Shown here: piece after piece, positions 3,538 to 41,366 of the stretch
Layout: the number at the start of each line of letters is the position of its first letter
How positions within the stretch are numbered: the first letter of the stretch is position 1
Assembly (NCBI GenBank): GCA_965204205.1
Contig: OZ241976.1
Coordinates: forward strand, 1,738,755-1,802,754
Direction: 5' to 3'
DNA length: 64,000 nucleotides
From: an uncultured Candidatus Binatia bacterium
Lineage (GTDB): Bacteria; Desulfobacterota; Binatia; UBA9968; JAJDTQ01
The notes under the pieces: generated by a model
Told to the model about the DNA's origin: nothing
The model's database searches: none
The model's input: the letters and a program-made list of their open reading frames with translations, nothing else
Made by a program: the position numbers and the translations under genes

Positions 3538-3568
3538 TGGCGCATCAGGGTTTCGTTCCGTGTTCCGA

Positions 3569-4954: not shown

Positions 4955-4973
4955 CTGACAGCCTCCTGATGCA

Positions 4974-4998
4974 GGGGCGGGTTTCTCGAACCCGCCCC
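4974..4998. repeat. family-B palindromic hairpin repeat (GGGGCGGGTTTCTCGAACCCGCCCC + CTACACC)
   Basis: Perfect GC-rich inverted repeat between the LLM stop and the UbiD start. Its CTA (4998-5000) is the LLM TAG stop. Related copies at 47078, 53355 and 55294. Confidence 0.6.
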
Positions 4999-5972: not shown

Positions 5973-6089
5973 TGTCCGTCACCCGTGTCGATCCTCCATG
6001 ACGCGAAACCCGAACCCGTCATCCTCGCCTTCCAGGCCGTGTCGGTTCTCTCCGTCGCTAACGGGACACGGCACTGATATCCGGCATCG

Positions 6090-8360
6090 TCATTCCGTTC
6101 CCTTGAGTTCCCCCAACGCCCGGAGAATCCGCTCCGGCGTCATGGGCAGTGTCCGCACGCGCACCCCCACGGCGTTGTAGATGGCATTGGCGATGGCCGG
6201 GGCGGGCGGTCCGAACGGCAACTCGCCAATGCCCTTGGCGCCGTAGGGGCCTTCGGAGGGGTCGCCCTCCACGAACGCCGCCTCGAGCCCTTTGGGCATC
6301 GTGCCGAAGGTGGGAAGCCGGTAGTCCACGAAATTCGGGTTAAGCACCTGGCCTCCTTCGATGGCAAGGTCCTCGAAGAGCGCGAAGCCCAGCCCCTGGG
6401 TGAGGCCGCCCTCGATCTGCTGTTGGACGCCCAGGGGGTTGATGGCCTTGCCCACGTCGTGCACCGCGAGGTACCGCAACAATTCCACGGCCCCGGTCTC
6501 CGTGTCGACCCGCACCTCGGCGACGTGGCAGCAGGCGGCGATGACCGGGGCCGCCGCCTCGTAGTCGTTGGTGACGAAGCGGGTGGCGGCCTCGTCCACG
6601 AACGCGCCCTTGCCGATGATGAGCAGGCCCTGGCGGTCGTAGGCCTCCCGCACCACCTCGTCAAAGGTCGTTTCGCCGCCGGGCTCCACCGTGGCCGCCA
6701 CACGGTCGCCGGCGAACACGAGGGTCTCGGGAGCGGCGCGCAGCATGCCCGCGGCCACCTCCGCCAGCCGCCGGCGCGCGTCGGCGGCGGCCGCCGCCAC
6801 GGCGTTGCCGCACACGTAGGTGGTGCGGCTGGCCCAGGTCCCCAGATCGAAGGGAATGACGTCGGTGTCGTTGTGGAAGATGCGGATGCGGTCCACCGAC
6901 ACGCCGAGCTGCTCGGCCGCGATCTGTGCCATGACCGTGCGCGTGCCGGTGCCGGTGTCGGCGATGGTGGCGATGATCGCCACGCTGCCGTCGCGGTCCA
7001 CCTTGACGATGGCTTCCGTGGAGTTCTGCCGGTAGTAGCGCAGGCCGGCGCCGGTCTCGGACAAGACCGCCATGCCGATGCCCGTGCGCGTCGTGCCTTC
7101 GGCGGTTCCCTTGCCCGGGCGCAACAGTTCCGTGGCACGTCCCAGGCAGGCGCGCTCGCATGGGCGCCGCAGGTTCTCGGTGCGCATCGCCACCGGGTCC
7201 AGTCCGAGCCGTTCGGCCATGGTTTCCACGATCGACTCGAAGGCGAAGGTCTCCTCGGCGTGCCCGAAGCCGCGGTAGGCGGCCCCCGGGGGCTTGTTGG
7301 TGTACACCAGCCGGGCATCCACCGACGTCGCCGGATGGTGGCGATCGTAGGACGAAAAAAAGGACATGGTGATGAAGTTGATGGTGGAGATGCCCTTGTC
7401 GTTGTAGGCGCCGTTGTCCCCCAGCACTTCCAGGCTCTTGGCGCGGATGACGCCGTCGCTGGTGCAGCCCAGCCTGAGCTTGAAGCGGTAGGCGTAGCGG
7501 GCGCCGGCACAGCGGAACTCCTCGTCCCGGGTGTTGACGATGCGCACCGGTCGGCCCCCGGACCTTCGGGACAGGGTCGCGGCGATGGGTACCATGACGT
7601 TCATCACCAGGCGGGCGCCGAAGCCACCGCCGGTCTCGGGCTGGATCACGCGCACCCGCCGCTGCGGGATGTCCAGGGTGCGGGCGATCTCCGCGCGCAG
7701 GGTGTGCGGCGCCTGGGTCTGGTGCCATACCGTGAGCTGGCCGGTGGCGCCGTACTGGGCGATGCAGCCGCGGGTCTCCATGACCGCGTGGGACTGGCGC
7801 GTGGTTTCGAACTCCTCCATCACTACCAGGTCGCAGCCGGCGAAGGCCGCCTCGACGTCTCCCTCCGTCTTGTGCACCTCGTAGGCCAGGTTGCCGCCGT
7901 CGTGGACCTCGGGAGAATCCGGCGACAGCGCGGCCTCCAGGTCCAGCACCGGCTCCAGAGGCTCGTAGTCCACCTCGATGAGACGCGCCGCTTCCTCCGC
8001 CGTGGCCTCGTCCAGCGCCGCCACCGCGGCCACCTCGTCCCCTGCGTAGCGCACCGTGCGGCCGGGCGCGCACAACGGCACCTTGTCCGCGAACTCCGGC
8101 ACGAAGCTGAACTTGATGTCCGGCATGTCGCTCGCGGTGATGATCGCGGTCACTCCGGGCAGCCGCTCCGCCCGGGAGGTGTCGATGCCGCGGATCCTGG
8201 CGTGGGGCAGGGGACTGCGCAGGACCTTGCCGTACAGCATTCCCGGCGCATGCAGGTCCTCGAGGTAGCGGGCCTCGGCGGTGACCTTGGCGGCACCTTC
8301 GACGGCGGCCGTCGGCCGGCCAATGACGTCGAGCGTGCGGCGTTGGGCGGACGTTGCCAT
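6090..8360 (-). CDS. Xanthine dehydrogenase/aldehyde oxidase family molybdopterin-binding subunit (CoxL-like)
   Basis: About 756 aa with full-length Mo-hydroxylase large-subunit similarity. Start chosen at MATSAQRR (8358-8360). No 2Fe-2S or FAD subunit genes are adjacent. Confidence 0.9.
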   Translation of the reverse strand: MATSAQRRTLDVIGRPTAAVEGAAKVTAEARYLEDLHAPGMLYGKVLRSPLPHARIRGIDTSRAERLPGVTAIITASDMPDIKFSFVPEFADKVPLCAPGRTVRYAGDEVAAVAALDEATAEEAARLIEVDYEPLEPVLDLEAALSPDSPEVHDGGNLAYEVHKTEGDVEAAFAGCDLVVMEEFETTRQSHAVMETRGCIAQYGATGQLTVWHQTQAPHTLRAEIARTLDIPQRRVRVIQPETGGGFGARLVMNVMVPIAATLSRRSGGRPVRIVNTRDEEFRCAGARYAYRFKLRLGCTSDGVIRAKSLEVLGDNGAYNDKGISTINFITMSFFSSYDRHHPATSVDARLVYTNKPPGAAYRGFGHAEETFAFESIVETMAERLGLDPVAMRTENLRRPCERACLGRATELLRPGKGTAEGTTRTGIGMAVLSETGAGLRYYRQNSTEAIVKVDRDGSVAIIATIADTGTGTRTVMAQIAAEQLGVSVDRIRIFHNDTDVIPFDLGTWASRTTYVCGNAVAAAAADARRRLAEVAAGMLRAAPETLVFAGDRVAATVEPGGETTFDEVVREAYDRQGLLIIGKGAFVDEAATRFVTNDYEAAAPVIAACCHVAEVRVDTETGAVELLRYLAVHDVGKAINPLGVQQQIEGGLTQGLGFALFEDLAIEGGQVLNPNFVDYRLPTFGTMPKGLEAAFVEGDPSEGPYGAKGIGELPFGPPAPAIANAIYNAVGVRVRTLPMTPERILRALGELKGTE

Positions 8361-8536
8361 GATCGAAGAATCGCAGAAAACCGGCTTGCATTCCAGACCG
8401 GATGTGGAATAGGCTTTCAACCCTTGGAAAATGAATGGTCTGCCCGGCCGCAAGGGATATCGAGCGATGCCCCTTCCCAACGGAGCCCCACACGCGGCAC
8501 CCCGCCCGGCAGTCGTGTCAAACGGAGGTTACATTC

Positions 8537-10270
8537 ATGAGCGACAAGAAGATTCTGAGCCGGGACAAACGGCGCTACCTGTTGCCGTCGGAGCGCGAGC
8601 TCGGGGCGGAAACCCACAGCTATCTGCCCGAGCTATGCGATCAGCTCCGCACCAAGAAAATCAACCGGCGGGACTTTTTGCGCCAAGCGGCGCTCTTGGG
8701 CATGACCGCGGGCGTAGCCTACGCCACCGCCGACAAGCTCATCGGCGGCGCTTTCGTGCCGTCCGTGCAGGCGGCCACGCCGAAACCCGGCGGGACGCTG
8801 CGGGTCTCCATGCGGATCCAGCAGGTGACCGACCCGGCGAGCTTCGACTGGACCGAGAAGTCCAACGTCGCGCGCTTCCTGGTGGAGCACCTGACCCGCA
8901 CCAAGGCGGACAACGTCACCGTTCCCTATCTCGCCGAGAAGTGGGAGGCCACCGACGACCTCAAGACCTGGGTGTTCCATCTGCGGAAGGACGTAACCTG
9001 GTCCAACGGCGACAAGTTCAACTCCGCCGATGTGGCCCACACGGTCAACCGCTGGCTCGACCCCAAGACCGGTTCCTCGAACCTCGGCCTGTTCAGCGCC
9101 ATGGTGGAGACCGTGAAAGGCCCGGACGGAAAGCCCATGAAGCGCGGCATCGCCAACGCGGTCGAGGTCATCGACGACCACACCATCCAGTTCAACCTCA
9201 AGCAGGCCGCCCTGGCCATGCCGGAGAACTTCTACAACTATCCCGCCGCCATCGTGCACCGGGGCTTCGGCAAGGACTACGCGGCCGACCTCTCCAAGAA
9301 CCCCATCGGCACCGGCCCGATGAAGCTGGAGGCGTTCGCGGTGGGCGAGAGGGCCATCCTCAAGAAGGCGCGGGAATGGTGGGCCGGACCGTTCCACCTG
9401 GACGAGATCCACTATTTTGACCACGGCGAGGACACCAACGCCTGGATCGCGGCGCTGGCGTCACAGCAGGTGGACATGGTCTACCGCCTTCCCAACGACG
9501 CCATCGACACCGTGAAACGGCTGCCCTTCGTGGACCTTCACGAAGCCACCACGGCGCAGACCGCGGTCATGCGCTTCCGCATTACCGAGAAGCCCTTCGA
9601 CAACCTCAAGCTGCGCCAGGCCATCGCCGCCTGCATGGACCACAAGGAGATCCTGGACAAGGCGTTCAAGGGACTCGGCCAGGTTGCCGAGAACCACCAC
9701 GTCTGCCCGATCCATCCGGACTACGCCGCGCTGCCGCCGCTCAAGCGGGACGTGGAAAAGGCCAAGAAGCTGCTGGCGGAGGCGGGCTACAAGGACGGCA
9801 TCACCGTCGAGATCGCCAACGGCGATACCGAAGGTCGGTGGATGACCGATGTGTGCGCGATATACAAGAACCAGCTCGCGCCCGCGGGCATCAACCTGAA
9901 GATCAACAAGATGCCGGCCAACCAGTACTGGGAGGTCTGGGACAAGGCGCCCTGGGGCTACACCGCTTGGACGCACCGTCCTCTCGGCACCATGGTGCTG
10001 GGTCTCGGTTACCGCTCCGGCGTGCCCTGGAACGAGACCGCCTACAACAACCCCAAGTTCGACGCTGCCCTCGACGACGCCGAGGCCACTCTCGACGTCA
10101 ACGAACGCAAGAAGAAGATGGCCGTCTGCGAGAAGATTCTCCAGGACGACGCCATCATCCCGCAGCCCTTCTGGCGGTCGGTCTTCAAGGCGGCGAACAA
10201 GCGGGTCAAGGGCCATCAGACCCATCCGACGCTGTATCATCAGTTCCATAACGTGTGGCTGGAAGGTTAG
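8537..10270 (+). CDS. ABC transporter substrate-binding protein, family 5 (DppA/OppA-like), Tat-secreted
   Basis: Twin-arginine signal RRDFLRQAALLGMTAGVAYA and an SBP_bac_5 fold. RBS GGAGG lies 8 nt upstream of the ATG at 8537. The longer ORF-track start at 8435 was rejected. Confidence 0.9.
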   Translation: MSDKKILSRDKRRYLLPSERELGAETHSYLPELCDQLRTKKINRRDFLRQAALLGMTAGVAYATADKLIGGAFVPSVQAATPKPGGTLRVSMRIQQVTDPASFDWTEKSNVARFLVEHLTRTKADNVTVPYLAEKWEATDDLKTWVFHLRKDVTWSNGDKFNSADVAHTVNRWLDPKTGSSNLGLFSAMVETVKGPDGKPMKRGIANAVEVIDDHTIQFNLKQAALAMPENFYNYPAAIVHRGFGKDYAADLSKNPIGTGPMKLEAFAVGERAILKKAREWWAGPFHLDEIHYFDHGEDTNAWIAALASQQVDMVYRLPNDAIDTVKRLPFVDLHEATTAQTAVMRFRITEKPFDNLKLRQAIAACMDHKEILDKAFKGLGQVAENHHVCPIHPDYAALPPLKRDVEKAKKLLAEAGYKDGITVEIANGDTEGRWMTDVCAIYKNQLAPAGINLKINKMPANQYWEVWDKAPWGYTAWTHRPLGTMVLGLGYRSGVPWNETAYNNPKFDAALDDAEATLDVNERKKKMAVCEKILQDDAIIPQPFWRSVFKAANKRVKGHQTHPTLYHQFHNVWLEG

Positions 10271-10281
10271 GAGCCTACGTT

Positions 10282-10316
10282 GCGGTGAACCCTGTAGGGG
10301 CGACCGGCCGGTGGCC
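10282..10316. repeat. REP-like hairpin between the SBP and permease genes
   Basis: CCTGTAGGGGC-(12 nt)-GCCCCTACAGG, an 11-bp perfect stem. This is the classic intra-operon position for a differential-stability element. Confidence 0.45.
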
Positions 10317-10378
10317 CCTACAGGCACCCTCCGCTTGTCCGGGTGCGCGTCCGCAACCAGGAAGCACGGGAGACTGAC

Positions 10379-11311
10379 ATGCCACAACTGATTCTGCGCC
10401 GCGTCGGCATGATGATCCTCATCATGCTGACGGTGGCGCTGCTTTTATTCCTCATGAACGAGGGCGATCCGCGGCTCATCGCCCGCAGCGTCCTGGGACC
10501 CTATGCCCAGGACCAGCAGCTTGATGCCTGGATCGTCCAGCATGGCTACGACCGCCCGATCCTGGTGCGTTACGTCGAATGGATCGGACGGGTGCTGTCC
10601 GGCGACCTCGGCGATTCCATCATCTACAAGCGCCCGGTCAACGAGATCTTCTGGGACCGCCTCGGCAATACCGGCATCCTCGCCGGCGTCACCTTCGTGG
10701 TCATGGTCGTCGTCGCTCTGACCCTGGGCGTCCTGGCCGGCATGAAGGAGGGCTCCGCCCAGGACCGGGTAATCTCGGTCTTCTCCATCACCACGACCTC
10801 CATACCGGAATATGCCAGCGCGGTGCTGCTGGCCTGGATCTTCGTCTTCGGGCTCGGCTGGCTCCCGGGCACCTCGTCCATGGTGACGGGGTTCAACGTG
10901 GTGGAGCTGATCCTGCCGGTGATGGTGTTGACCCTGTACGGTTTCGGCTACGTGGCGCGGATGACCCGGGCCTCCATGGCGGAAGTGATGACCAACCACT
11001 ACATCCGCACCGCCATGCTCAAGGGGCTGCCGTACCGCCACATCATCATGAAGCACGCGCTCCGCAACGCGCTGATCGCTCCGTTCACGGTCATCATGCT
11101 GCAGATCAACTGGCTCTTGTCCGGGGTGGTGGTGACCGAGTTCGCCTTCGGCTACAAGGGGTTCGGCGCGCTGCTGCTGGAGGCGGCGCTGCGCCGGGAC
11201 ATCTTCGTGATCGAGGCCTGCGGCACGGCGGCGGTGTTCGTGGCAGTCTTCACCCAGACCATCGGCGACGTCGGGTACACCTACCTGAACCCGAGAATCC
11301 GGTTCAAGTGA
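10379..11311 (+). CDS. ABC transporter permease (DppB/OppB-like)
   Basis: Multi-TM protein with a BPD_transp_1 signature. Start moved to MPQLILRR. Confidence 0.85.
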   Translation: MPQLILRRVGMMILIMLTVALLLFLMNEGDPRLIARSVLGPYAQDQQLDAWIVQHGYDRPILVRYVEWIGRVLSGDLGDSIIYKRPVNEIFWDRLGNTGILAGVTFVVMVVVALTLGVLAGMKEGSAQDRVISVFSITTTSIPEYASAVLLAWIFVFGLGWLPGTSSMVTGFNVVELILPVMVLTLYGFGYVARMTRASMAEVMTNHYIRTAMLKGLPYRHIIMKHALRNALIAPFTVIMLQINWLLSGVVVTEFAFGYKGFGALLLEAALRRDIFVIEACGTAAVFVAVFTQTIGDVGYTYLNPRIRFK

Positions 11312-11321
11312 GGAGGCGCAA

Positions 11322-12215
11322 ATGGCTACCGATACTGAAAGCGCACCTCTCGTAAGGCCGGATTCGACCATCGTCAACGCGGTCAAGGCCATGGCCCTCC
11401 TGCGGGAGAGCCCGGTGGGCATGGTGGGCGCGTTGATCGTCGTCTTCTTCGTCCTGTTGGCGATCTTCGCACCCCTGGTGTCGCCCTACGACCCCAACGC
11501 GACGATCCTGCCTTTTGCCTTCCCGGGCACGGCGGCCCCGGACGGCGGACTGTTCCTGTTCGGCACCGACCACCTGGGGCGCGACATCCTTTCGCGCATC
11601 ATCTGGGGCGGTCAACGGGTATTGTTCTACGCCACCCTGGCCACCGTTTCCGCCTATATCGTCGGAATCGTCATGGGTCTGGCGGCCGGCTATTTCCGCG
11701 GCTACCTCGACGAGATCATTTCGTTCTTCGCCAACGTGATTCTCTCCTTTCCGATCATGGTCCTGTACGTGCTGATCATCGCCAAGGTCGGTGCCTCCGG
11801 GCTCAACATCGTCTTCGCGGTCGTGTTCGCGTCCGCACCGGGCATCATGCGCATCGTGCGCGGCGTCACCATGGACATCGCCACCCGGGACTACATCGCC
11901 GCCTCCCAGACCCGCGGCGAGGGTCCCTGGTACATCATGCTGGTGGAGATCCTGCCCAACGCCCGCAGCCCGCTGATCGTCGATTTCTGCCTGCGCATGG
12001 GCTACACGACCATCACCATCGGGGCGCTGGGGTTCCTGGGCCTCGGGCTGCCCCCGCCGGATCCCGACTGGGGCGGCATGATCACCGAGACCCGCGCCTT
12101 CGTGACCGGCGGCTTCCCGCACATGGCGATCCTTCCCGCGTGCGCGGTTTCCTTGTTGGTGCTGGGTTTCAACCTGCTGGCCGACGGGCTGCGGGAAGTG
12201 TCTCTGAAGGACTAG
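11322..12215 (+). CDS. ABC transporter permease (DppC/OppC-like)
   Basis: 297-aa multi-TM permease following DppB-like. Confidence 0.85.
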   Translation: MATDTESAPLVRPDSTIVNAVKAMALLRESPVGMVGALIVVFFVLLAIFAPLVSPYDPNATILPFAFPGTAAPDGGLFLFGTDHLGRDILSRIIWGGQRVLFYATLATVSAYIVGIVMGLAAGYFRGYLDEIISFFANVILSFPIMVLYVLIIAKVGASGLNIVFAVVFASAPGIMRIVRGVTMDIATRDYIAASQTRGEGPWYIMLVEILPNARSPLIVDFCLRMGYTTITIGALGFLGLGLPPPDPDWGGMITETRAFVTGGFPHMAILPACAVSLLVLGFNLLADGLREVSLKD

Positions 12216-12225
12216 GAGAAACGTC

Positions 12226-14349
12226 ATGGCCGAATATAGCGAAGAGGCGCCGGTCCTCGAGATTTCCGGTCTCCGGCTCAGTTACTACACCCGGGCCGGC
12301 GAAATTCCCGCGGTAATGGACTTCGATCTCACCATACGGAAGGGCGAATCCGTCGGTCTGGTGGGCGAGTCCGGGTGCGGCAAATCCACCGTGGCCAACG
12401 GAATCATGCGCTACATGGGCAAGAACGGCGGCATCGTCGGCGGCACCATCAAGTTCAAGGGCCGGGACATGGCGGAGCTGAGCGAGGAGGAGATCCGGCG
12501 GGTCCGCGGCAAGGACATCGCCATGATCTACCAGGAGCCCATGGCCGCGCTCAATCCGAGCCTGACCATCGCCGCGCAGCTCATGGAAGTGCCTATGATC
12601 CACGAGGGGGTGAGTCAGGAAGAAGCCTTCCAGCGCGCCTTCGACATGCTGGCGGCGGTGAACATCCCAGACCCGAAACGCCTCATGGACTCCTACCCGC
12701 ACCAGGTCTCCGGCGGCCAGCAACAGCGCGTGGTGATCGCCATGGCGCTGCTTTCGCGGCCGGCGCTGCTGTTGCTGGACGAGCCCACCACGGCCCTGGA
12801 CGTCACGGTGGAGGCGGGGATCGTGGAGCTGATCGCCGAGTTGAGCAAGGAGTCCGGCGCGTCATTGCTGTACATCTCCCACAACCTCGGCCTGATGCTC
12901 GAAGTCTGTGACCGCATCTGCGTGATGTACTCGGGCGAGGTGGTGGAGGAAGGCCACATCGACTCCATCTTCTCCTGGCCCAAGCACCCCTACACCCACG
13001 GGCTGTTCGGCTGCATCCCGCTGCCCCACGCCGACAAGAATGCTCGCCCGCTCGCGGCCATCAAGGGGCAATTGCCGCTACCGCACCAGCGCCCCAAGGG
13101 TTGCTATTTCGGCCCGCGTTGCGAGTTCTTCGAGCCCGGCCGTTGCGACAACGACCATATTCCGATGGAGGGGGTGCACACCGATGACGATCCCGCGCAC
13201 CGGGTGCGTTGCCTGCGTTGGAACGAGATCGACCACGACGCCGCGGTAAGCAGCGACACCATCCGCGAGCCCATCGAGGTGGGTGATACGGTTCTCGAAG
13301 TCGACAACATGCGCAAGTACTACGACGTCAAGGAGAGCACGCTGGCGGCGCTCATCTCTCAGGAATCGGTGCGCCAGGTCAAGGCCAACGAAAGCATCAG
13401 CTTCGACGCCGGAGAAGGGGAGACCGTGGCCATCGTCGGCGAGTCGGGCTGCGGCAAGTCCACCTTCGCCAAGGTGCTGATGGGCCTGGAAACCGCCACC
13501 GACGGCGAGGTGCGCCTCGACGGCACCGACCTCGGCAGCATCGAGGTCAAGAAGCGCACCCCGGAGCAACTCGCGTCCTTGCAGATGGTGTTCCAGAACC
13601 CCAACGACACCCTCAACCCGTCCCACTCCGTCGGCTACCAGATCGGGCGGGTCATCAAGCGGTTCGGCATCGAGTCCGATCCGGCCAAGATCCAGGACCG
13701 GGTCCACAAGCTGCTGGACACGGTCAAGCTGCCGCGCGCCTTCGCCCACCGCAAGCCGCGCCAGCTCTCGGGCGGACAGAAACAAAGGGTGGGCATCGCC
13801 CGCGCCTTCGCCGGCAACCCCAAGACCGTCATCGCCGACGAACCCATCTCCGCGCTGGACGTGTCGGTGGCGGCGGCGGTGACCGAGCTGCTGATGGACA
13901 TCCAGCGCGAGCACCGCACCACGCTGCTGTTCATCAGCCACGACCTGTCCGCGGTGCGCTACCTCTCCGACCGCGTGGTGGTCATGTACCTCGGACAGAT
14001 CATGGAGCGGGGGACCACCGAGGAAGTATTCGCGCCGCCCTATCATCCCTATACGGAAGCGCTGCTCTCGGCGGTGCCCATCGCCGACCCGGAAGTGGAG
14101 AAACGCCGCATCGTGCTGGAAGGGAACCTGCCGAGCCCGTTGGACCCACCCAAGGGCTGCCCGTTCTCCACCCGCTGCCAGCGAAAGGTCGGCGACATCT
14201 GCGACAACGAGCCGCCCCCGGTACGGCTCGACACCGAGGGGCATTCCATCGCCTGCCACATCCCGCTGGAGGAGCTGCGCGAGGTGGAGCCGGTGATCAC
14301 CATCCCGGACCGGGATCTGGGCGGCGAGGGCAAACCCGCGGTGGTTTGA
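12226..14349 (+). CDS. Fused ABC transporter ATP-binding protein (DppD-DppF-like, two NBDs)
   Basis: Two Walker A motifs (GESGCGKST twice), two LSGGQ(Q/K)QR signatures and C-terminal oligopeptide-ATPase Cys motifs. Confidence 0.9.
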   Translation: MAEYSEEAPVLEISGLRLSYYTRAGEIPAVMDFDLTIRKGESVGLVGESGCGKSTVANGIMRYMGKNGGIVGGTIKFKGRDMAELSEEEIRRVRGKDIAMIYQEPMAALNPSLTIAAQLMEVPMIHEGVSQEEAFQRAFDMLAAVNIPDPKRLMDSYPHQVSGGQQQRVVIAMALLSRPALLLLDEPTTALDVTVEAGIVELIAELSKESGASLLYISHNLGLMLEVCDRICVMYSGEVVEEGHIDSIFSWPKHPYTHGLFGCIPLPHADKNARPLAAIKGQLPLPHQRPKGCYFGPRCEFFEPGRCDNDHIPMEGVHTDDDPAHRVRCLRWNEIDHDAAVSSDTIREPIEVGDTVLEVDNMRKYYDVKESTLAALISQESVRQVKANESISFDAGEGETVAIVGESGCGKSTFAKVLMGLETATDGEVRLDGTDLGSIEVKKRTPEQLASLQMVFQNPNDTLNPSHSVGYQIGRVIKRFGIESDPAKIQDRVHKLLDTVKLPRAFAHRKPRQLSGGQKQRVGIARAFAGNPKTVIADEPISALDVSVAAAVTELLMDIQREHRTTLLFISHDLSAVRYLSDRVVVMYLGQIMERGTTEEVFAPPYHPYTEALLSAVPIADPEVEKRRIVLEGNLPSPLDPPKGCPFSTRCQRKVGDICDNEPPPVRLDTEGHSIACHIPLEELREVEPVITIPDRDLGGEGKPAVV

Positions 14350-14500: not shown

Positions 14501-15523
14501 ATGGGGAAGATCGACGCGACCGTTAAGGTAATCGACGCGGACGCCCACGCCCGGGACAACGACGACTTGGTGAAGCCGTTCCTGGGGGAGGCATTCCAGA
14601 ACCGGCGGCCACCGTTCATTCCACGGGAAACCTACGACCGCAACCTCGGCGGAACCCTCGGGCATGCGGGCATCAAGCACGAGGAACGCCTTGCCGCCAT
14701 GGACACGCAGGAAATCCACACCGCGGTCATGTACCCGACCAGCGGTCTGGGCATCGGCCGCATCCGCGAGCCCGGCTACCAGACACAATTGTGCCGCGCT
14801 TACAACGAGTTCATCGCCGACTACTGCAAGGTCTCCCCGCGTCTCAAGGCGGTGGCGAACCTGCCCGTCAATGCTCCGGACACGGCCGCCGAGGAGTTGC
14901 GGTACGCGGTGGCCGAGCTGGGTTTGGTCGGCGGCATGCTGGCGGCCCAGGGCCACGGCAAAAACTTCGGCTCGTCCGAGTACTTCCCGCTCTACGAAGA
15001 GGCGCAGAAGCTCAATACTCCGCTGGCCATCCATGCCTTCGGCGGCGACGAGCCCGGCAGCGAGATCTTCGACCAGTTCATTTCCATCCACACCACCGGA
15101 CACCCGTTCCCGGTGCTCCGGCAGCTCACCGGCATGATCTTCGCCGGCGTCCCCGAGCTGTTCCCCGACCTGAAGCTCGGCTTTCTCGAGATCGGCTGCG
15201 GCTGGATCCCGTACTGGTCGGACCGCATGGACGAAGAGTGGGAGAAGCGCGGCGCGGTGGAGGCCCCGGAGTGCAAGAAGGAGCCCAGCCACTACATCAC
15301 CAGCAAGAACGTGTACTATGGCTGCGAGCCCGACGAGAAGACCATCGGCTACGTGGTGGGGGAAATCGGCTCCGAGACCATCATGTACGCGTCCGACTAC
15401 CCCCATTGGGACATGAGCTGGCCGGAATCCGGTTCGCTCATCTGGGCGCGGGACGACCTCTCGCTGGAAGCCAAGCAGAACATACTGGGGGACAACGCCC
15501 GGCGCTTCTACGGCCTCGACTGA
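14501..15523 (+). CDS. Amidohydrolase-2 family metal-dependent hydrolase/decarboxylase (ACMSD-like)
   Basis: 340 aa with an N-terminal DADAH metal motif and amidohydrolase_2 fold similarity. RBS GGGAGAAG precedes it. Confidence 0.85.
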   Translation: MGKIDATVKVIDADAHARDNDDLVKPFLGEAFQNRRPPFIPRETYDRNLGGTLGHAGIKHEERLAAMDTQEIHTAVMYPTSGLGIGRIREPGYQTQLCRAYNEFIADYCKVSPRLKAVANLPVNAPDTAAEELRYAVAELGLVGGMLAAQGHGKNFGSSEYFPLYEEAQKLNTPLAIHAFGGDEPGSEIFDQFISIHTTGHPFPVLRQLTGMIFAGVPELFPDLKLGFLEIGCGWIPYWSDRMDEEWEKRGAVEAPECKKEPSHYITSKNVYYGCEPDEKTIGYVVGEIGSETIMYASDYPHWDMSWPESGSLIWARDDLSLEAKQNILGDNARRFYGLD

Positions 15524-15665
15524 AAGCAGCCGACCGGTTGCGATCCGTCCGGCTTTCAAGTAACTAACTGACTTCGTTGAAGGAATCCTTCAGTTGCCGA
15601 CGCCACGCGGCGCCGGCAACGGTCGCCTTCGGCGTAAATTCCACGTGATTCAGGGAGCACATTCG

Positions 15666-16415
15666 ATGGCTTTATCCGGTGACGCCTTTGTTCAGGAAAT
15701 CCAGGACGCGGTCCGCTCAAAGCACTCCAAGGACAACCCTATCATCGGGATGATCGAGAGGGGCGAGATCGACCGGGAGGCGCTCAAGGGGTTCGTCGGC
15801 CAGTTCTATCTCTTCTTCCCCAAGCCCTTCCCGAAGCCCATCGCCGCCATGCTCGGACGTTGCCCCGACGACCCGGAGCTGGAAAGGATGTGGATCGAGA
15901 ACGTGGTGGAGGAGGGCACCGGCGAGATCTCCGGCACCGACAGCCACCGGGGCCTCTTCATCCGCTTCGCCATGGCCTGCGGCTTCGAGTCCAAGGCCGA
16001 GCTGGACGCGGTCCAGCCGTTGCCCGAGACGTCCGCGTTCCTCGACTGGAGAGAGCTGCTGATGTATCAGCGTTCATGGCTCGAGCTTTTCGCATGCCAG
16101 GGTTTTTGCCTCGAAGGAACCGCCAGCGAGCGCATGGCCCGCATCGTCACCGGCCTGACCACCCACTACGGCTTTGACCGAGAGAGCGAGGACATCCGCT
16201 ACTGGACCCTGCACATGGGGGTTGACGAGGAGCACATGAAGGTAGGTCCGGAGGCGGTGCGGAAATACGCCGTCACCGAGCAACAACAGGAAACGGTACG
16301 CCAGTCCGTGCACAAGACCCTGGACCAGTTCTGGCTGGCCTTCGACGGCATCAAGCGGGCGTACGTGGACAAGGATCCGATTTACGCCGCCTGGCGCAAC
16401 GGGGCTTCGGCTTGA
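15666..16415 (+). CDS. TenA/PqqC/CADD-family heme-oxygenase-like protein with a putative diiron ligand set
   Basis: Start at MALSGDAF with RBS GGGAG. Candidate ligands are E-x6-H (GEISGTDSH), a Glu in CLEG about 56 aa later, and H-x3-D-x2-H (HMGVDEEH). This matches CADD-like spacing. Confidence 0.7.
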   Translation: MALSGDAFVQEIQDAVRSKHSKDNPIIGMIERGEIDREALKGFVGQFYLFFPKPFPKPIAAMLGRCPDDPELERMWIENVVEEGTGEISGTDSHRGLFIRFAMACGFESKAELDAVQPLPETSAFLDWRELLMYQRSWLELFACQGFCLEGTASERMARIVTGLTTHYGFDRESEDIRYWTLHMGVDEEHMKVGPEAVRKYAVTEQQQETVRQSVHKTLDQFWLAFDGIKRAYVDKDPIYAAWRNGASA

Positions 16416-16442: not shown

Positions 16443-17093
16443 ATGGCCATGATCGATCTTTCGCGGATCATCTACGACGGCATGCCCAAGATCCCGGTGC
16501 TCCCGGACGTGCACGTGCAACGGTTCTTCGACCTCGGGAAGGGCCATCCGCTCAACGTCACCGAGATCAACCTGCCGTGCCACGCCGGCACCCACGTGGA
16601 CGCGCCGGTCCACATCGTCCCCGACGGGAAATCCATCGAGGAACTGGACCTCGATGCATTCGTCGGACCGGGTGCGGTCATCTCGGTGGAGAAGGGCGGT
16701 GGAGAGGAAGTCACCGCGGCGGATCTCGAAGGCTCCGGAGTCCCGGTCGACCGGGGCGATATCCTCATGCTGCACACGGGATGGGACGAGAAATTCGAAA
16801 GCGAAGAATACAATCTGCACCCCTATCTCTCCGTCGATGCGGCCGAATGGATGGTCGAGCGCGGGGTGAAGCTGTTCGGCATCGACTGCATCACGGTGGA
16901 CCTGCCGACACCATTGCGACCCAAGGGGTTCGACTTCCCGGTGCACCGGACGCTGCTCGGAAACGACGTCCTGATCGCGGAGAACGTAACCAACCTCGCT
17001 GCCATCGCGGGCCGGAAGAGCCGCATCATGGCGTTGCCCCTCAAGGTGCAGGGCAGTGACGCGGCCCATGCGAGAATCGTCGCGGAGGTCTAG
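16443..17093 (+). CDS. Cyclase-family protein (kynurenine formamidase-like metal hydrolase)
   Basis: 216 aa with putative cyclase / KynB fold similarity and an HxGTHxDxPxH-like motif (CHAGTHVDAPVH). Confidence 0.85.
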   Translation: MAMIDLSRIIYDGMPKIPVLPDVHVQRFFDLGKGHPLNVTEINLPCHAGTHVDAPVHIVPDGKSIEELDLDAFVGPGAVISVEKGGGEEVTAADLEGSGVPVDRGDILMLHTGWDEKFESEEYNLHPYLSVDAAEWMVERGVKLFGIDCITVDLPTPLRPKGFDFPVHRTLLGNDVLIAENVTNLAAIAGRKSRIMALPLKVQGSDAAHARIVAEV

Positions 17094-17169
17094 GCAAAAT
17101 TTGAGACGACTTCTCCCGGAAAGACGGCAACTTCCTGTGATTGTTATCAAATCCGAATCGAGGTGATGG

Positions 17170-18135
17170 ATGCTGGCAAGCCCCATCAGAGGAATCATCG
17201 GAGCCGCGCTGACCCCGTTCACGGACGACGGCAAGGTGGACTACGACGCCCTGGCGCGCGAGATCGAATTTCTCGTAGCGGATTGCGACGCCATCTCCGT
17301 GGTCGCCGTCGAGGCCTCCGAGTACACGGTGCTGTCCCTCCAGGAGCGCAAGGAAGTGATGCGCCACGCCACCGAGATCGTCAACAAGCGCGTGCCGGTC
17401 ATTCTCGGAGCGTCGAGCCATTCCATCGAGACGGTTCTCGACCTGTCGGACCACGCGGCCGCGGTGGGTGGCGACCTGATCCAGGTGCTGATGCCGATCC
17501 GCCCGTGGGGCGGCCAGCCGACCATCGCGGACCTGGTGCAGTTTTTCACCGAAGTGGCCTCGGTCAGCCCGCTGCCCATCGTCGCCTACCACAACCCCGG
17601 TCCGGGCGCCGACCCGCCGCTGGACGCCTTCGTGCGGCTTAGCGAGCTCGAGAAGGTCGACTACTTCAAGGAGAGCTCGCGCGACATCACCAAGATCACG
17701 CGCCTCATCGAGCAGATTCACCTGGCCGGCAAGGCCAACTACTTCACCACCATGCAGCCGCTGCTGACGACCCTCATGATGGGGGGCGCCGGCGCCACCA
17801 TGCCGCCGCCGGGAACGCGCATCGGCGCCAGGGTGGTGCGCGCTTTCCGGGAGGGTGACATCGACAGGGCGCGCTACTGGCAGCGCTGTTTCACGCTGTT
17901 TCCGGGAAAGTGGGGCGCCTACGGCCTGCCGCCGATCATGAAATCCGCCCTCAAGCACTTCGGTGTCGACATCGGCGACCCGGCCCGGCCTTACGCGCCG
18001 GTGAGTCCCCGGGACCATGCCCAGATCGGACAGTTCCTGACCCAGATCGGCATCCTGGGAGACGGCGAGCCGGATGAGGCGGCTTTTGACGAGGCGGCGG
18101 TCCAGCTCGCCCAGGACGACACCTTCCTCCGGTAA
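17170..18135 (+). CDS. Dihydrodipicolinate synthase/N-acetylneuraminate lyase family (class I aldolase)
   Basis: 321 aa with DapA-family similarity. RBS GAGGTGA precedes it. Confidence 0.85.
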   Translation: MLASPIRGIIGAALTPFTDDGKVDYDALAREIEFLVADCDAISVVAVEASEYTVLSLQERKEVMRHATEIVNKRVPVILGASSHSIETVLDLSDHAAAVGGDLIQVLMPIRPWGGQPTIADLVQFFTEVASVSPLPIVAYHNPGPGADPPLDAFVRLSELEKVDYFKESSRDITKITRLIEQIHLAGKANYFTTMQPLLTTLMMGGAGATMPPPGTRIGARVVRAFREGDIDRARYWQRCFTLFPGKWGAYGLPPIMKSALKHFGVDIGDPARPYAPVSPRDHAQIGQFLTQIGILGDGEPDEAAFDEAAVQLAQDDTFLR

Positions 18136-18141
18136 GGAGCC

Positions 18142-18348
18142 ATGTCCGGCGGCCTCTTCACGTGGATCGCGGAGCAGATCAAGGCCTGCTCCGATTTTCT
18201 GGTGCTGCTCCTGATCCGCGGCACCTCGCGGTTCGAATCGGAGCTGACCGACGAAGGACGGCAGGAACAGCGCATGTGGCGGGACCGGCGCATGCGTAGC
18301 CTCAAGGGGCTCGCCCTGCGCGCCAGGCGGCGGCAGAAGGCGTCCTGA
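18142..18348 (+). CDS. Small hypothetical protein (68 aa; hydrophobic N-terminal half, Arg-rich C-terminus)
   Basis: RBS AAGGAG lies 4 nt upstream of the ATG. GC3 bias matches the neighbouring genes, and the ORF is tightly packed between the aldolase and SQR genes. Confidence 0.45.
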   Translation: MSGGLFTWIAEQIKACSDFLVLLLIRGTSRFESELTDEGRQEQRMWRDRRMRSLKGLALRARRRQKAS

Positions 18349-18375
18349 CGACCGCGACCATCGCACGGGAACAGG

Positions 18376-19371
18376 ATGCACTACCACAACGGACGCAAGC
18401 AGATCGTGGTGCTCGGCGGCGGCAGCGGCGGTATCGTCGCCGCCACCAAGCTCGGCCGGACCCTGGGCGCGGACCACGACATCATCCTCATCGACCGGCG
18501 CGCCGACCATGTCTACATGCCGGCTTTCCTGTTCGTGATGGTGGGGCAGAGACGTCCGGAGGACATCACGCGAAGGCTCAAGCGCCTGGAGAAACGCAAC
18601 ATCCGGGTCCTCCAGGCGGAGATCCTGGGGATCGATCCCGGGCGCCAGCAAGTCATCCTGGAAAGCACCGCCATCCCCTACGACTATCTGATCGTGTCCC
18701 TGGGCCTCGAAGTCAGGCCCGACCTGCTTCCGGGTTTCGCCGAAGGGGCGCATCACCCCTGGGAGATGGACGCGGCCCTGCGCCTCAAGACCACCCTGGA
18801 CAACTTCCGGGAGGGGCGCGTGCTGGTGGGTGTGCCGCAAGGCCCTTACCGCTGCCCGCCGGCGCCATACGAAGCCCAATGGATGCTCGACAGCTACTTC
18901 AAGGAACGCAACATCCGTGACCTGGTGGACCTGCAGTACTTCACCCGGGAGCCCGAACCCGCCGGGGAGGAACACATGCCCTCGGTGTGGATGGACGCCC
19001 AGAGCAAGAAGCGCGACGTCACCATCCATTACGACTTCATCGTGCAGTCCATCGATGCCGAGCGTAAGCGCGTCAAGGGCCTCTACGGCTACGAGCTTTC
19101 CTACGACCTGTTGTTCATGGTGCCGCCGCACCGCCCCTCCCGGGTACTTTACGACTGCGGGCTGGCGGAACGGGAGACCGGCATCCAGGTGGACTACGAC
19201 ACTCTGGAAACCAAGTGGGACAACGTCTACGCCATCGGCGACAATGCCGACATGCCGGCCTCTAAGGCCGGCGGCGTGGCACACCAGGAAGCCGACGTGG
19301 TGGCGGACAACCTGGTGGCGGAAATCACCGGGGAAGGGGAGTTGTCCACACTGCACCTCCACACCATATGA
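18376..19371 (+). CDS. Sulfide:quinone oxidoreductase-like FAD-dependent oxidoreductase. The conventional ORF ends at an in-frame TGA (see feature 19369-19533)
   Basis: N-terminal VVLGGGSGG FAD motif, a CPPAPYE motif resembling the SQR Cys160 region, and a YAIGD second FAD motif. The 331-aa conventional product lacks the C-terminal membrane-anchor region. Confidence 0.85.
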   Translation: MHYHNGRKQIVVLGGGSGGIVAATKLGRTLGADHDIILIDRRADHVYMPAFLFVMVGQRRPEDITRRLKRLEKRNIRVLQAEILGIDPGRQQVILESTAIPYDYLIVSLGLEVRPDLLPGFAEGAHHPWEMDAALRLKTTLDNFREGRVLVGVPQGPYRCPPAPYEAQWMLDSYFKERNIRDLVDLQYFTREPEPAGEEHMPSVWMDAQSKKRDVTIHYDFIVQSIDAERKRVKGLYGYELSYDLLFMVPPHRPSRVLYDCGLAERETGIQVDYDTLETKWDNVYAIGDNADMPASKAGGVAHQEADVVADNLVAEITGEGELSTLHLHTI

Positions 19372-19533
19372 CTGCTCTCATGCGGCGCGGGACGCGCCGC
19401 CGCCAACCGCACCACCTACCCTCAGGGATGGCCGCCCTTCGGCGCCACCGACTCACGGTCCTGGGGCCCGTCCCGCATGATCTACTGGAGCAAGGTCCTG
19501 TTCGAGAAATGGTGGCTCTGGCGTTACTTCTGA
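19369..19533 (+). other. Putative UGA-recoded (selenocysteine?) C-terminal extension of the SQR-like gene
   Basis: The same frame as the SQR remains open for 53 codons after TGA 19369-19371. Its translation is LLSCGAGRAAANRTTYPQGWPPFGATDSRSWGPSRMIYWSKVLFEKWWLWRYF, ending at TGA 19531-19533. The W/K/F-rich amphipathic tail is typical of monotopic SQR anchors. Confidence 0.4.
19382..19400 (+). promoter_or_regulatory. SECIS-like GC hairpin downstream of the in-frame UGA
   Basis: GCGGCGCG-GGA-CGCGCCGC, an 8-bp perfect stem that begins 10 nt after the UGA. Its apical loop is about 19-21 nt after the UGA. Confidence 0.3.
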
Positions 19534-19550
19534 CGCCACTTCTGCGACAC

Positions 19551-19632
19551 GGCCTGTCCTGAGCCCTTCGACAGGCCTGTCCTGAGCTTGTCGAAGGGCT
19601 CAGGCCAGGCGTAACGAAGCGAAGACGAAGGA
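19551..19632. repeat. family-A MITE-like palindromic repeat (CCTGTCCTGAGC...GCTCAGG...GAAGCGAAGACGAAGGAC)
   Basis: Tandem/inverted copies of GTCCTGAGCCCTTCGACAGGC lie between the SQR-tail stop and the PDO start. Seven related copies occur elsewhere in the window. Confidence 0.6.
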
Positions 19633-19634
19633 CC

Positions 19635-20672
19635 ATGATCCTCAGAGAGCTCAACGGCGAGAGTTGCAAAACCTATCTGATAGCAGATGAGGGAAGGGGA
19701 TGCGCCGTCCTGGTGGACCCCCTTCACGCCCACGTGGACCGTTATCTCGCGGTGCTGGCCTACCACCGCCTCGAACTGGACCTCGTCATCGACACGCACA
19801 CACACGCCGATCATCTCAGCGGAGGCCCGCAGTTGCGGTTCCTGGTCGGATCGCGGTTCGCCATGCAGAAATGGGCGCCGAGCCCGGCCGTCGACGTCCA
19901 TCTGGAAGAAGGCGAGGAAGTTCCGATCGGTAACTTGGCATTGCGCGTCCTGCACACGCCGGGACATACCCCAGACGGCATGAGTCTCGTGGTGGAAGGC
20001 AACGTGCTCACCGGCGACACCCTGTTCATCGGCGGCTCCGGCCGCACCGACTTCGCCGGCGGCGATGCCGGCGCCCAGTTCGACGCGGTGACCCGGAAGC
20101 TGTTCACGCTGCCGGACGAGACCATCGTACGGCCGGGGCACGACTACCGCGGCAACACCACCTCTACCATCGGCCAGGAAAAGCGCACCAATCCCCGGCT
20201 TGCGAACCGCACCCGCGAGGAATACATCGACCTCATGAACAACCTCGGACTCTCGCCGCCCCAGAACATCCAGGAGGTCCTCCAGCCCAACCAATCCGCC
20301 CTCGGCACCGGGGATATCAGCTTTCCGGACTGGAGCGAGCTCAAGAAGGTCCGGGAAATCGACGTCCAGGGACTCCATCGAATGCTGGCGTCGGATACGC
20401 AACCGCTGCTGGTGGACGTGCGCGAGCCGGGAGAGTACACGGGCGAACTCGGCCACCTGTCCGGCAGCCTGCTCATTCCGCTACGCGAGCTCGTGAACCG
20501 CCTTGACGAGATCGACGAACACAAGGGTGAACCGGTGGTGACCGTCTGCCGCGCCGGCATGCGCAGCGCCACCGCGGCGGCCATTCTCGAGCGATCCGGC
20601 TTCACCGACGTCTCCAACCTTGCCGGCGGCCTGCTGGCGTGGAACGAAGCCGCGCTGCCGGTGGAACGCTAG
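19635..20672 (+). CDS. Persulfide dioxygenase (ETHE1-type MBL fold) fused to a C-terminal rhodanese domain
   Basis: HxHxDH motif DTHTHADH plus a rhodanese active loop CRAGMRS. Confidence 0.85.
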   Translation: MILRELNGESCKTYLIADEGRGCAVLVDPLHAHVDRYLAVLAYHRLELDLVIDTHTHADHLSGGPQLRFLVGSRFAMQKWAPSPAVDVHLEEGEEVPIGNLALRVLHTPGHTPDGMSLVVEGNVLTGDTLFIGGSGRTDFAGGDAGAQFDAVTRKLFTLPDETIVRPGHDYRGNTTSTIGQEKRTNPRLANRTREEYIDLMNNLGLSPPQNIQEVLQPNQSALGTGDISFPDWSELKKVREIDVQGLHRMLASDTQPLLVDVREPGEYTGELGHLSGSLLIPLRELVNRLDEIDEHKGEPVVTVCRAGMRSATAAAILERSGFTDVSNLAGGLLAWNEAALPVER

Positions 20673-20719
20673 GAATCGGAATCGGACTCCGATCAAAGCC
20701 ACTCGAGATCCCTCCGGTC

Positions 20720-21064
20720 ATGGCAACCAAACCGAACCGCCCGCGCCGCTATCCCGACTGGGAGAACACCTGCAACTACTGCCTGTACCTTCAACCCATG
20801 CCGCGCGGCACAGGCTCGGGAAACTGCACCTACCACCGCCAATGGATCCAGCGAGCCGCCTTCAGCACCTGCAGCGACATGAGCGCCCAGCGGTTGGAAG
20901 AGGGCATCTACACCCTCACCACCAGCGCCTACGGCACCTGGACCTACCACCGCCGCCGCGAACCCGCCCGGACACGGCTGTTTCTCGTACCCGCCCGGCC
21001 AGCCGCCGACACCGAGACCCCCAACACGGAAACCCCGCCGCGCACCAAGAAACGAATGACCTGA
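20720..21064 (+). CDS. Hypothetical small Cys-containing protein (CNYC...C...C). The C-terminus is low-complexity
   Basis: About 85% GC3 across the frame. It is co-directional and lies 48 nt after the PDO-rhodanese gene. It has a weak RBS and a P/T/R-rich tail that overlaps a CA-rich tract. Confidence 0.35.
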   Translation: MATKPNRPRRYPDWENTCNYCLYLQPMPRGTGSGNCTYHRQWIQRAAFSTCSDMSAQRLEEGIYTLTTSAYGTWTYHRRREPARTRLFLVPARPAADTETPNTETPPRTKKRMT

Positions 21065-21220
21065 CTGGGGCCTTAACCCGATTGCGGCGCACCTCTGATC
21101 CGACCTGGCCGGCGAGCCGCCACACCCGCACCCCACAAAGTAGTCCGCAAACCGAGCACCCAAGGGGACCCAACTCCCCAAGACCACGGGAGGGGAGACA
21201 ACACTCCCGAAGCTGCACCC

Positions 21221-21279
21221 ATATTATGTCAGCTTACGCATTGGCCTCTGAAGGCCAGTGCATAAGTTGACATAATATA
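21221..21279. repeat. AT-rich long palindrome (26-bp arms, 7-nt loop)
   Basis: ATATTATGTCAGCTTACGCATTGGCC-tctgaag-GGCCAGTGCATAAGTTGACATAATAT, with 3 mismatches in 26. It lies in a 350-bp gene-free gap whose GC is well below the local average. Confidence 0.55.
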
Positions 21280-21413
21280 CCTTATCAGACATTCGGTTGT
21301 CCTTGGGAATCCCTCGCCCGCGCTTCACGCGAAACTCGGGCGATCCAATCTCCCGGCTCTATAACAGTCTATGTGGGGGATCGACGACGACCGCGCCTAT
21401 CAGGTGTGAACGC

Positions 21414-22109
21414 CTACTGCGTGGCCTGTTCCGATGGTTTCCCCGAGGCGGCTTCAAGCCGTTGCACTCGCAACGCGATTTCGACCGTCTCTCCTTCGGG
21501 AAATTCCTTGAGATATGCCTTGTAACCCTCCGCGGCTTCTTGGATCTTGCCGAGCCGGGTGTTGCAGCGTGCCTTGCCCAGCATGGCTTCTTCCCGCATG
21601 GGTCCCGGTTGTTCGAGCGACCGGGTCAGGGTCGCCACGGCCTCTTCGCACGAGCCGTTCATCTCCTGAGCCAGCCCGAGGGTGACTAGTGCCACCTGGC
21701 CCAGGAAGGCATCCTGACTCGCCGAAACATCGCCTCCGAGAGTCTCCACGGCGTTGGCCGGTTGGCCCAGCGCGAGAAAGCTGTTGGCGATGTAGAGGTT
21801 CGCAAGCGCGTCGTATGGCGCCTCGCCACGCGCCTTGAGGCTTCGGAAGGACTCCAGGGCGGCGTCATAACGGCCGTTCCTATATTCCTCGAGTCCCATG
21901 TTGTACTCCTGGAACGCCAGGTCTCTTTGGTAGCCGCGGTAGTACTGCCAGCCCATGACGGTGGCCGCGACCACCACCACCGCCACGCCAAGGCCGATCA
22001 ACTGCGTCCTGTACGCCTTGAGCAGATCGAGCAACTGGCCGGTCAACACCATGAACCGGTCCGGCTGACGGATGTCCTTTCGAAGAATGCGTTTTCTCGG
22101 CGCGGCCAT
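21414..22109 (-). CDS. Membrane-anchored tetratricopeptide-repeat protein (YfgM-like)
   Basis: Start at MAAPRKRIL with RBS AGGAG. It has a single TM segment followed by TPR-like helices. Confidence 0.75.
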   Translation of the reverse strand: MAAPRKRILRKDIRQPDRFMVLTGQLLDLLKAYRTQLIGLGVAVVVVAATVMGWQYYRGYQRDLAFQEYNMGLEEYRNGRYDAALESFRSLKARGEAPYDALANLYIANSFLALGQPANAVETLGGDVSASQDAFLGQVALVTLGLAQEMNGSCEEAVATLTRSLEQPGPMREEAMLGKARCNTRLGKIQEAAEGYKAYLKEFPEGETVEIALRVQRLEAASGKPSEQATQ

Positions 22110-29612: not shown

Positions 29613-29775
29613 GGCGTCCTTCGACTTCGCTCGGCCGGGCCTCGCTACGCCTGTCCTGAGCCTTGTCGAAGGGCTCAGGACGAAAGGGTTTTCATCGAAA
29701 TTCTTAAAGTGAATCGTTCGCCCTGAGCCCTTCGACAAGCTCAGGACAGGCTTTGCGAAGCGAAGTCGAAGGGCG
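29613..29775. repeat. family-A MITE-like nested palindromic element (about 160 bp; TIR CGTCCTTCGACTTCGC / GCGAAGTCGAAGGGCG)
   Basis: Outer TIRs, inner arms CCTGTCCTGAGCCTTGTCGAAGGGCTCAGGAC and an AT-rich centre. It lies between the recG start and the carB stop. Confidence 0.65.
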
Positions 29776-41345: not shown

Positions 41346-41366
41346 GCCATACCGGGCGGCGGTTCG

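Follow-up and report, generated by a model that had tools for sequence, protein, structure and literature searches.

The region between positions 18142 and 21064 of a 64,000-nucleotide (nt) stretch of DNA from an uncultured Candidatus Binatia bacterium (contig OZ241976.1, positions 1,738,755-1,802,754; about 65% G+C; the whole stretch is hereafter called the window) is likely to encode a selenium-dependent sulfide-oxidising unit. This unit would consist of a selenocysteine (Sec)-containing flavoprotein of the sulfide:quinone oxidoreductase (SQR) type, hereafter Sec-SQR, a small partner protein designated orf68, an optional second small protein, orf114, and, in this lineage, a persulfide dioxygenase (PDO)-rhodanese fusion. 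The four open reading frames (ORFs), listed in the preliminary description of this DNA as a sulfide-detoxification module, are real and co-directional on the forward strand at the coordinates given there (Table 1). The SQR-like gene is present as described, but its frame runs on past the listed end, a TGA at 19369-19371 that would close a product of 331 amino acids. The gene is predicted to encode a selenoprotein with Sec at this UGA, because the codon pairs with Cys codons in homologs, a hairpin resembling a selenocysteine insertion sequence (SECIS) follows it, the downstream tail appears to be selected, and the position aligns with the active site of the human enzyme SQOR.

When one genome per species was scanned, 80 loci with SQR homologs were obtained. 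TGA occupies the column of codon 332 in all 39 loci that have at least 50% identity and span that column (37 L-loci, the frameshifted L034 being left out, together with L081 and L082). The same column holds TGC or TGT in 36 of 38 distant loci (31-39% identity), and the remaining two, which are archaeal, encode Phe. Nearly all of the best 120 database homologs are 329-331 residues long and end at the TGA column; two are full-length, and one of these (P0006) carries Cys exactly at the TGA column, encoded by TGC in its locus L083. Public records describe the 331-residue products as 'NAD(P)/FAD-dependent oxidoreductase' or 'sulfide:quinone oxidoreductase'. TGA is also the ordinary stop of many other genes in the window.

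After the first TGA the frame stays open for 53 further codons up to a final stop, TGA at 19531-19533, and the product ends in ...FEKWWLWRYF. Exactly the same tail length was found in 39 of 39 sequences (the same 37 L-loci, the frameshifted L034 and the window). At 21 tail columns a single amino acid is kept despite the use of at least two codons, and therefore the tail appears to be translated and to be under selection at the protein level. It includes the C-terminal motif GKVLFEKWWLW, which is also present in Cys-type homologs. The single-base frameshift in the Sec-SQR gene of L034 (6963-6977) is most likely an assembly error of the metagenome-assembled genome (MAG).

The hairpin begins 11 nt 3' of the UGA. 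In the window version a stem of 8 bp carries a GGA loop, and the core shared by the family is a 6-bp stem, CGGCGC/GCGCCG (19383-19388/19394-19399), that closes a 5-nt loop NGGNC, with 96.7% of cells paired and a distance of 17-18 nt from the UGA to the loop. All 39 Sec sequences fold in a common register with a minimum free energy (MFE) between -9.8 and -16.1 kcal/mol, whereas in the corresponding part of Cys-type genes the MFE averages -7.5 kcal/mol and no structure is shared. Synonymous sites are frozen within the stem (GGC, CGC, GCC) and free to vary in the loop. The most divergent Sec genes, those of L035 and L036, also form a hairpin, in which the 3' arm differs and the loop reads GGUCA, and in the Cys ortholog of L083, which has TGC, the hairpin is absent and the peptide reads EPGKAAA versus GAGRAAA. 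The model of the bacterial SECIS sets constraints on stem length, loop length, the loop-initial G and a spacing of 16-37 nt with MFE of -7.5 or lower (PMC13188914); the window hairpin conforms to all four. We infer that Sec itself is inserted at codon 332 and that this hairpin would direct the insertion.

The protein is best described as a predicted type III-SQR-related flavoprotein with a putative Cys160/Sec332 redox pair. Human SQOR was its best match among solved structures (E 7.5e-30 for 8DHK and 2.7e-29 for 6OI5), and C160 and position 332 align with the two active-site Cys residues of 6OI5, Cys201 and Cys379 in the literature numbering. The FAD-binding GGGxGG fold (G14-G19), C160 and position 332 are conserved. 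With human SQOR (6OI5), the SQR of Acidianus ambivalens (3H8I) and flavocytochrome c sulfide dehydrogenase (FCSD, 1FCD) the window protein shares the FAD fold, the position of the redox pair and an amphipathic C-terminal region; it is unlike them in having a predicted Sec in place of the second Cys and added small partner proteins, the similarity lying between E 1e-19 and 1e-30. Unlike FCSD (1FCD), the window has no cytochrome subunit, whereas a cytochrome c gene (L083 1895-2326) follows the Cys ortholog of L083 300 nt downstream.

The nearest curated family is NF049943, the best NCBIfam match (E 4e-77, almost full-length). It represents a type III SQR selenoprotein subtype built from Desulfosediminicola genes that were found by deep-Sep (PMC12013277), and it is listed with the motif HxxU in a 2026 review (PMC13188914). 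Both are SQR-like NAD(P)/FAD oxidoreductases with one Sec, and the local sequence around the putative Sec in the window, L-H-T-I-U, has an H-T-I-U that fits HxxU in a comparison by motif only. The partners orf68 and orf114 and the association with the upstream catabolic genes discussed below are not described for NF049943. Other members of the Sec clade score 245-272 bits against this model and distant Cys-type homologs 242-364 bits; since the former are no better than the Cys forms, the window clade seems not to be closer to NF049943 and to form a separate Sec lineage. A neighbour-joining tree places the Sec genes in a single clade, away from every Cys-type locus. Nested within this clade are P0006, a Cys form, and P0011, a form with Asn at the Sec position, and this nesting indicates that they are secondary losses of Sec. 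The locus of P0006 (L083 438-1595) has no orf68 or DHDPS neighbour. From the taxonomic labels of its members, the Sec lineage appears to span Binatia, Acidobacteriota and Chloroflexota. Searches of the literature on selenocysteine or selenoproteins in Binatota or Binatia, and on a gene cluster of HDO, cyclase and DHDPS, gave nothing useful.

The gene for orf68 lies between the DHDPS-family gene and the Sec-SQR gene in nearly all Sec-SQR loci, with 34-96% amino-acid identity, and its family comprises 995 database relatives with 15 invariant columns. No Pfam or NCBIfam match was obtained for it, and a profile search against PDB sequences gave nothing significant. The AlphaFold2 (AF2) model, with a predicted local distance difference test (pLDDT) score of 80, shows helices at 3-28 and 37-67 that form a two-helix hairpin, for which Foldseek returned zero matches against the PDB. 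Most homologs add an N-terminal hydrophobic, transmembrane helix that the window copy lacks. The description of one small ORF as hydrophobic thus suits most of the homologs but not the window orf68, which has no predicted membrane-spanning segment. Three Acidobacteriota MAG contigs carry an in-frame fusion in which an orf68 homolog, transmembrane helix included, stands at the N-terminus of Sec-SQR. This fusion, along with the conservation of both small ORFs, upholds the earlier proposal that they encode accessory proteins. A single-base frameshift in the orf68 gene of L013 (5896-5901) is most likely another MAG assembly error.

The second small protein, orf114, has 167 database relatives in which C18, C21, C36 and C51 are invariant. 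In 11 loci that lack PDO its gene directly follows the SQR gene, about 1-12 nt from the stop, and it is missing from many Sec-SQR loci, including the close relatives L001 and L004. No match above threshold was found in Pfam or NCBIfam, and a profile search against PDB sequences again gave nothing significant. Sub-threshold Pfam matches were HIPIP, BssB_TutG and BssC_TutF (E 0.035-0.11); the PDB comparison with BssB/TutG was likewise sub-threshold (E about 1), with all four Cys aligned, and hhalign against a BssB fragment gave 74.7% probability, also with the four Cys aligned. The Cys residues and their flanks correspond to those of BssB/TutG (4PKF chain B) in C-x2-C, G-x-C-T, W and TTCS, but orf114 lacks a glycyl-radical enzyme context. 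All of these matches, its only outside similarities, are sub-significant, yet they agree in pointing to BssB and to small [4Fe-4S] proteins of the high-potential iron-sulfur protein (HiPIP) type. On these alignments, orf114 is probably a BssB/HiPIP-like iron-sulfur (Fe-S) protein and would presumably bind an Fe-S cluster.

Upstream of orf68 stand genes for a heme-oxygenase-like iron enzyme (HDO), a cyclase/arylformamidase-like hydrolase and a DHDPS-family enzyme, here called the trio. The preliminary description placed the module right behind genes that it named as amidohydrolase, CADD-like, cyclase and aldolase; the Pfam assignments bear out this position, the last of the four genes being DHDPS-like. 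The idea that the module had been appended to a catabolic operon did not hold: the module is not simply appended, because HDO-cyclase-DHDPS-orf68-SecSQR(-orf114) is itself a conserved unit across about 40 genomes, with the five genes from HDO to Sec-SQR kept in about 35 loci at 60-98% identity, in which the trio is included together with orf68 and SQR, and PDO, amidohydrolase and ABC transporter are the variable parts. The DHDPS-SQR link was also found in MAGs labelled Acidobacteriota and Chloroflexota. Synteny of the small ORFs with SQR and PDO, which had been proposed as a check, is conserved as far as SQR is concerned; where PDO is missing, they flank the SQR gene itself and not an SQR-PDO pair. 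The ABC transporter and amidohydrolase precede the trio only in L001-L006. In other relatives unrelated genes or tRNA-Arg(CCT) occur upstream of HDO, the tRNA gene lying immediately 5' of the HDO operon in L015, L022, L023, L024, L028, L085 and others. The upstream genes of L086 resemble a mobile element (primase/DUF3987, HTH_17).

The Sec-SQR unit would form the terminal part of an operon of HDO-like, cyclase-type, DHDPS-type, orf68 and Sec-SQR genes. This arrangement is supported by the 6-nt spacer between DHDPS and orf68 (18135/18142) and the 27-nt spacer between orf68 and SQR (18348/18376), by a scan of the forward strand in which no promoter-like site was detected, and by the lack of conservation of the only terminator-like hairpin. 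No conserved terminator or promoter thus separates SQR from the upstream genes, a point on which the operon proposal had been made to depend. The hairpin in question, at 18170-18193 with a T-rich tail, lies within the orf68 coding sequence and was rejected as probably due to chance because it is not conserved, being lost in L003, L004 and L006. The spacers of 6-50 nt reported earlier were confirmed for these two gaps and for the one before orf114 (47 nt, 20672/20720), but the SQR-PDO gap measures 101 nt from the final stop at 19533, and 263 nt from the first TGA. An antisense ORF of 773 amino acids at 17041-19362 was discarded as a high-GC artefact, its codon-position GC being unlike that of real genes.

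A role of the unit in sulfide oxidation is supported by its genomic context, to which the gene downstream of Sec-SQR contributes. Its product is a persulfide dioxygenase-rhodanese fusion (PRF): it matches the PRF of Burkholderia phytofirmans, BpPRF (5VE3), over its full length (residues 9-339, E 4e-66) and ETHE1 with E 2.7e-39, and it retains the metal motif H55xH57xD59H60 and the rhodanese loop C305-RAGMRS. It is not a Blh equivalog, since NF040641 (Blh) gives 94 bits versus a cutoff of 625. In L001-L006, the six closest relatives, the gene separates those for SQR and orf114, and in L081 and L082 a PDO-rhodanese gene with 59% identity takes this place but is read from the opposite strand; the view that PDO is solely a recent insertion was softened in consequence. 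In L035 (Chloroflexia), a small ORF and Sec-SQR follow genes for PDO-Rhd-Rhd (Rhd, rhodanese), Rhd, TauE and DUF302, and the trio is absent. This neighbourhood is a classical sulfide-oxidation cluster. It resembles the Staphylococcus aureus cst operon in having TauE. The full-length BpPRF match, the aligned Cys positions of SQOR and the L035 cluster all speak for the earlier pairing of SQR and PDO-rhodanese as a sulfide/persulfide oxidation pair. As in heterotrophic sulfide-oxidation operons that pair SQR with a PDO-rhodanese fusion, such as those of BpPRF and cst, PRF adjoins SQR, and its rhodanese loop is of the same CRAGxRS type as that of BpPRF; unlike in those operons, the window SQR is a putative selenoprotein, PDO is variable, and the unit is set in an HDO-cyclase-DHDPS operon.

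A possible course of the reaction can be outlined in four steps. Sulfide would first attack the Cys160-Sec332 centre. Two electrons would then pass to FAD and on to a membrane quinone, presumably the acceptor of Sec-SQR, by way of the amphipathic post-UGA tail, or possibly through orf114. The sulfane sulfur would be released as a persulfide, and in this lineage the PDO-rhodanese fusion would turn the persulfide into sulfite and thiosulfate. In this scheme orf68 would bind the flavoprotein as its dedicated partner, with a membrane helix in many relatives and as an N-terminal domain of the enzyme in Acidobacteriota, and orf114 would be an optional four-Cys protein made right after SQR. The operon arrangement suggests that the Sec-SQR unit disposes of sulfide from the upstream trio pathway, and it is plausible that the trio enzymes release sulfide.

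Several observations weigh against a selenium-dependent sulfide-oxidising unit. A search for selA, selB, selD and tRNA-Sec found none of them, either in the 64-kb window or among 48 related loci. Apart from the altered 3' arm of L035 and L036, the nearly invariant stem offers G-U wobbles only and no two-sided compensatory change, so that covariation speaks neither for the stem nor against it. At 259.7 bits the window protein stays far under the curated NF049943 cutoff of 525. PDO is not present in most Sec-SQR loci, and the trio shows no recognised sulfur chemistry in Pfam, NCBIfam or its solved relatives, the closest structures being CT610/CADD (a para-aminobenzoate synthase), PqqC and DHDPS. 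As for orf114, its similarity to Fe-S proteins is below significance throughout, a HMMER search of its profile against 1.84 billion representatives gave 27 clusters that were all in-family and no remote relatives, and its AF2 model is poor (pLDDT 57) and unfit for a fold search.

Tentatively, and with low confidence, the genes might encode a multi-subunit selenoenzyme, composed of an SQR/FCSD-like Sec protein, an obligate orf68 and an optional HiPIP/BssB-like orf114, that serves the trio pathway on an organosulfur or organoselenium compound and is not a generic sulfide detoxifier. The principal rival to sulfide oxidation, which is rather unlikely, holds that the Sec flavoprotein, orf68 and orf114 form a redox component dedicated to the HDO-cyclase-DHDPS pathway, with possible oxidation of thiols, persulfides or selenide, or Fe-S electron shuttling with the di-iron enzyme, and that PDO is a later opportunistic neighbour. 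The maintenance of the five-gene unit in about 35 loci, with the DHDPS-SQR link in Acidobacteriota and Chloroflexota MAGs, would fit such a dedicated component, as would the absence of orf68, orf114 and the trio from each of the 38 Cys-type homolog loci; the scarcity of PDO and the score under the cutoff of the sole curated SQR model that matches the enzyme point the same way, and the cytochrome c gene behind the Cys ortholog hints at a protein electron acceptor. Yet the most divergent Sec members, L035 and L036, lack the trio, and the former lies in the classical sulfide-oxidation cluster. The protein retains both catalytic positions of SQR and the C-terminal membrane motif common to the family. 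Two separate lineages, those of the window and of L081/L082, have PDO-Rhd right beside Sec-SQR, and a more distant PDO-Rhd-Rhd occurs in the L035 cluster.

Two further readings are regarded as effectively excluded. That TGA 19369 is a genuine stop, with a 331-residue product and a decaying remnant downstream, is highly improbable: more than 100 database entries do carry a protein that gene callers have ended at this codon, and the Sec machinery is missing from the loci scanned, but the tail is open, of equal length and under purifying selection in 39 of 39 sequences and bears the C-terminal motif of the wider family, the second catalytic residue would be missing from the short product, distant homologs have Cys opposite the TGA and the Cys ortholog has TGC there, and the SECIS-compliant hairpin is conserved. 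Just as improbable is the suggestion that one or both small ORFs are chance frames without function in GC-rich DNA: neither yields a family or significant PDB match, Foldseek is empty for orf68, and orf114 has atypical codon-position GC and is missing in L001 and L004, but both are conserved in place at the protein level where the flanking genes are only 60-80% identical, both have invariant residues and numerous database relatives, and orf68 is fused to SQR in three loci.

If Sec-SQR is accepted, more than a thousand database entries cut to 329-331 residues, in which both the membrane-binding tail and the second catalytic residue are missing, would have to be corrected. The protein would represent a second, phylogenetically separate selenoprotein lineage among the type III-like SQRs, which are the least studied class of SQR, and would imply that Binatia use Sec, as do the MAGs labelled Acidobacteriota and Chloroflexota in which the gene occurs. 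In addition, two unannotated small-protein families are defined as putative SQR partners, one of them backed by natural gene fusion; they bear on the anchoring of the enzyme and on the destination of its electrons. The link to the HDO-cyclase-DHDPS trio marks a pathway that may produce sulfide.

Table 1. Features of the window and, where a locus is named, of related loci (aa, amino acids; SD, Shine-Dalgarno sequence; REP, repetitive extragenic palindromic).
Feature	Position	Strand	Description or basis
Peptide/opine-type ABC transporter	8435..14349	+	Pfam
Amidohydro_2 enzyme	14501..15523	+	Pfam
Heme-oxygenase-like iron enzyme (HDO; CADD/TenA/PqqC-like)	15594 or 15660..16415	+	Pfam, NCBIfam
Cyclase/arylformamidase-like hydrolase	16443..17093	+	Pfam, NCBIfam
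DHDPS-family enzyme	17170..18135	+	Pfam, NCBIfam
orf68	18142..18348	+	68 aa; SD AAGGAG 3 nt 5' of ATG
SQR-like flavoprotein	18376..19533	+	385 residues including putative Sec; Pfam Pyr_redox_2 + FCSD_central
In-frame UGA, codon 332	19369..19371	+	TGA/Cys column alignment
Predicted bacterial SECIS hairpin	19382..19400	+	Folding and register kept across relatives
REP-like palindromic repeat, SQR-PDO spacer	19552..19610	.	Inverted repeat, 25-nt arms
PDO-rhodanese fusion (PRF)	19635..20672	+	Pfam Lactamase_B + Rhodanese
orf114	20720..21064	+	114 aa; Cys C18, C21, C36, C51
orf68-SQR fusions	L029 3958-5427; L031 about 1940-3270; L039 about 5760-6699		No stop between
Other CTGAGCTTGTCGAAGGGCTCAGG copies	29722-29744 (-); 38131-38153 (+); 41269-41291 (-)		

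The spacer between SQR and PDO is largely occupied by the REP-like palindrome, whose arms are 92% complementary. Its repeat core, CTGAGCTTGTCGAAGGGCTCAGG, occurs in four copies in the window versus 0 expected by chance. An Rfam scan of 17000-22000 returned only sub-threshold, spurious miRNA-hairpin models, which fall on this palindrome.

A flavin reductase was considered as a member of the unit and rejected, being adjacent only in L081 and L082 and 32 kb off in the window. The Flavin_Reduct and DUF1178 genes of the window are 66% and 54% identical to genes directly 5' of HDO in those two loci; in the window they are inverted and lie along with the block valS-birA-coaX-EF-G (53407-54512 (-) and 58364-63999 (-) in all), so that a large rearrangement between the lineages seems to have taken place. 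The long ORFs at 41274-43087 (+) and 52219-53403 (-) match nothing in Pfam, have a codon-position GC profile that is atypical and are probably not genes; a CcmH/CycH-type protein is encoded by the real gene, at 51145-53322. At 55339-58119 (-) a second Amidohydro_2 gene adjoins a gamma-glutamyltranspeptidase gene. The divergent stretch at 2-8528 (-) carries genes for a NitT/TauT-type ABC transporter with an NMT1/THI5-like binding protein, a UbiD-family decarboxylase, a luciferase-like monooxygenase and a molybdenum-cofactor large subunit of the xanthine dehydrogenase or aldehyde oxidase family.

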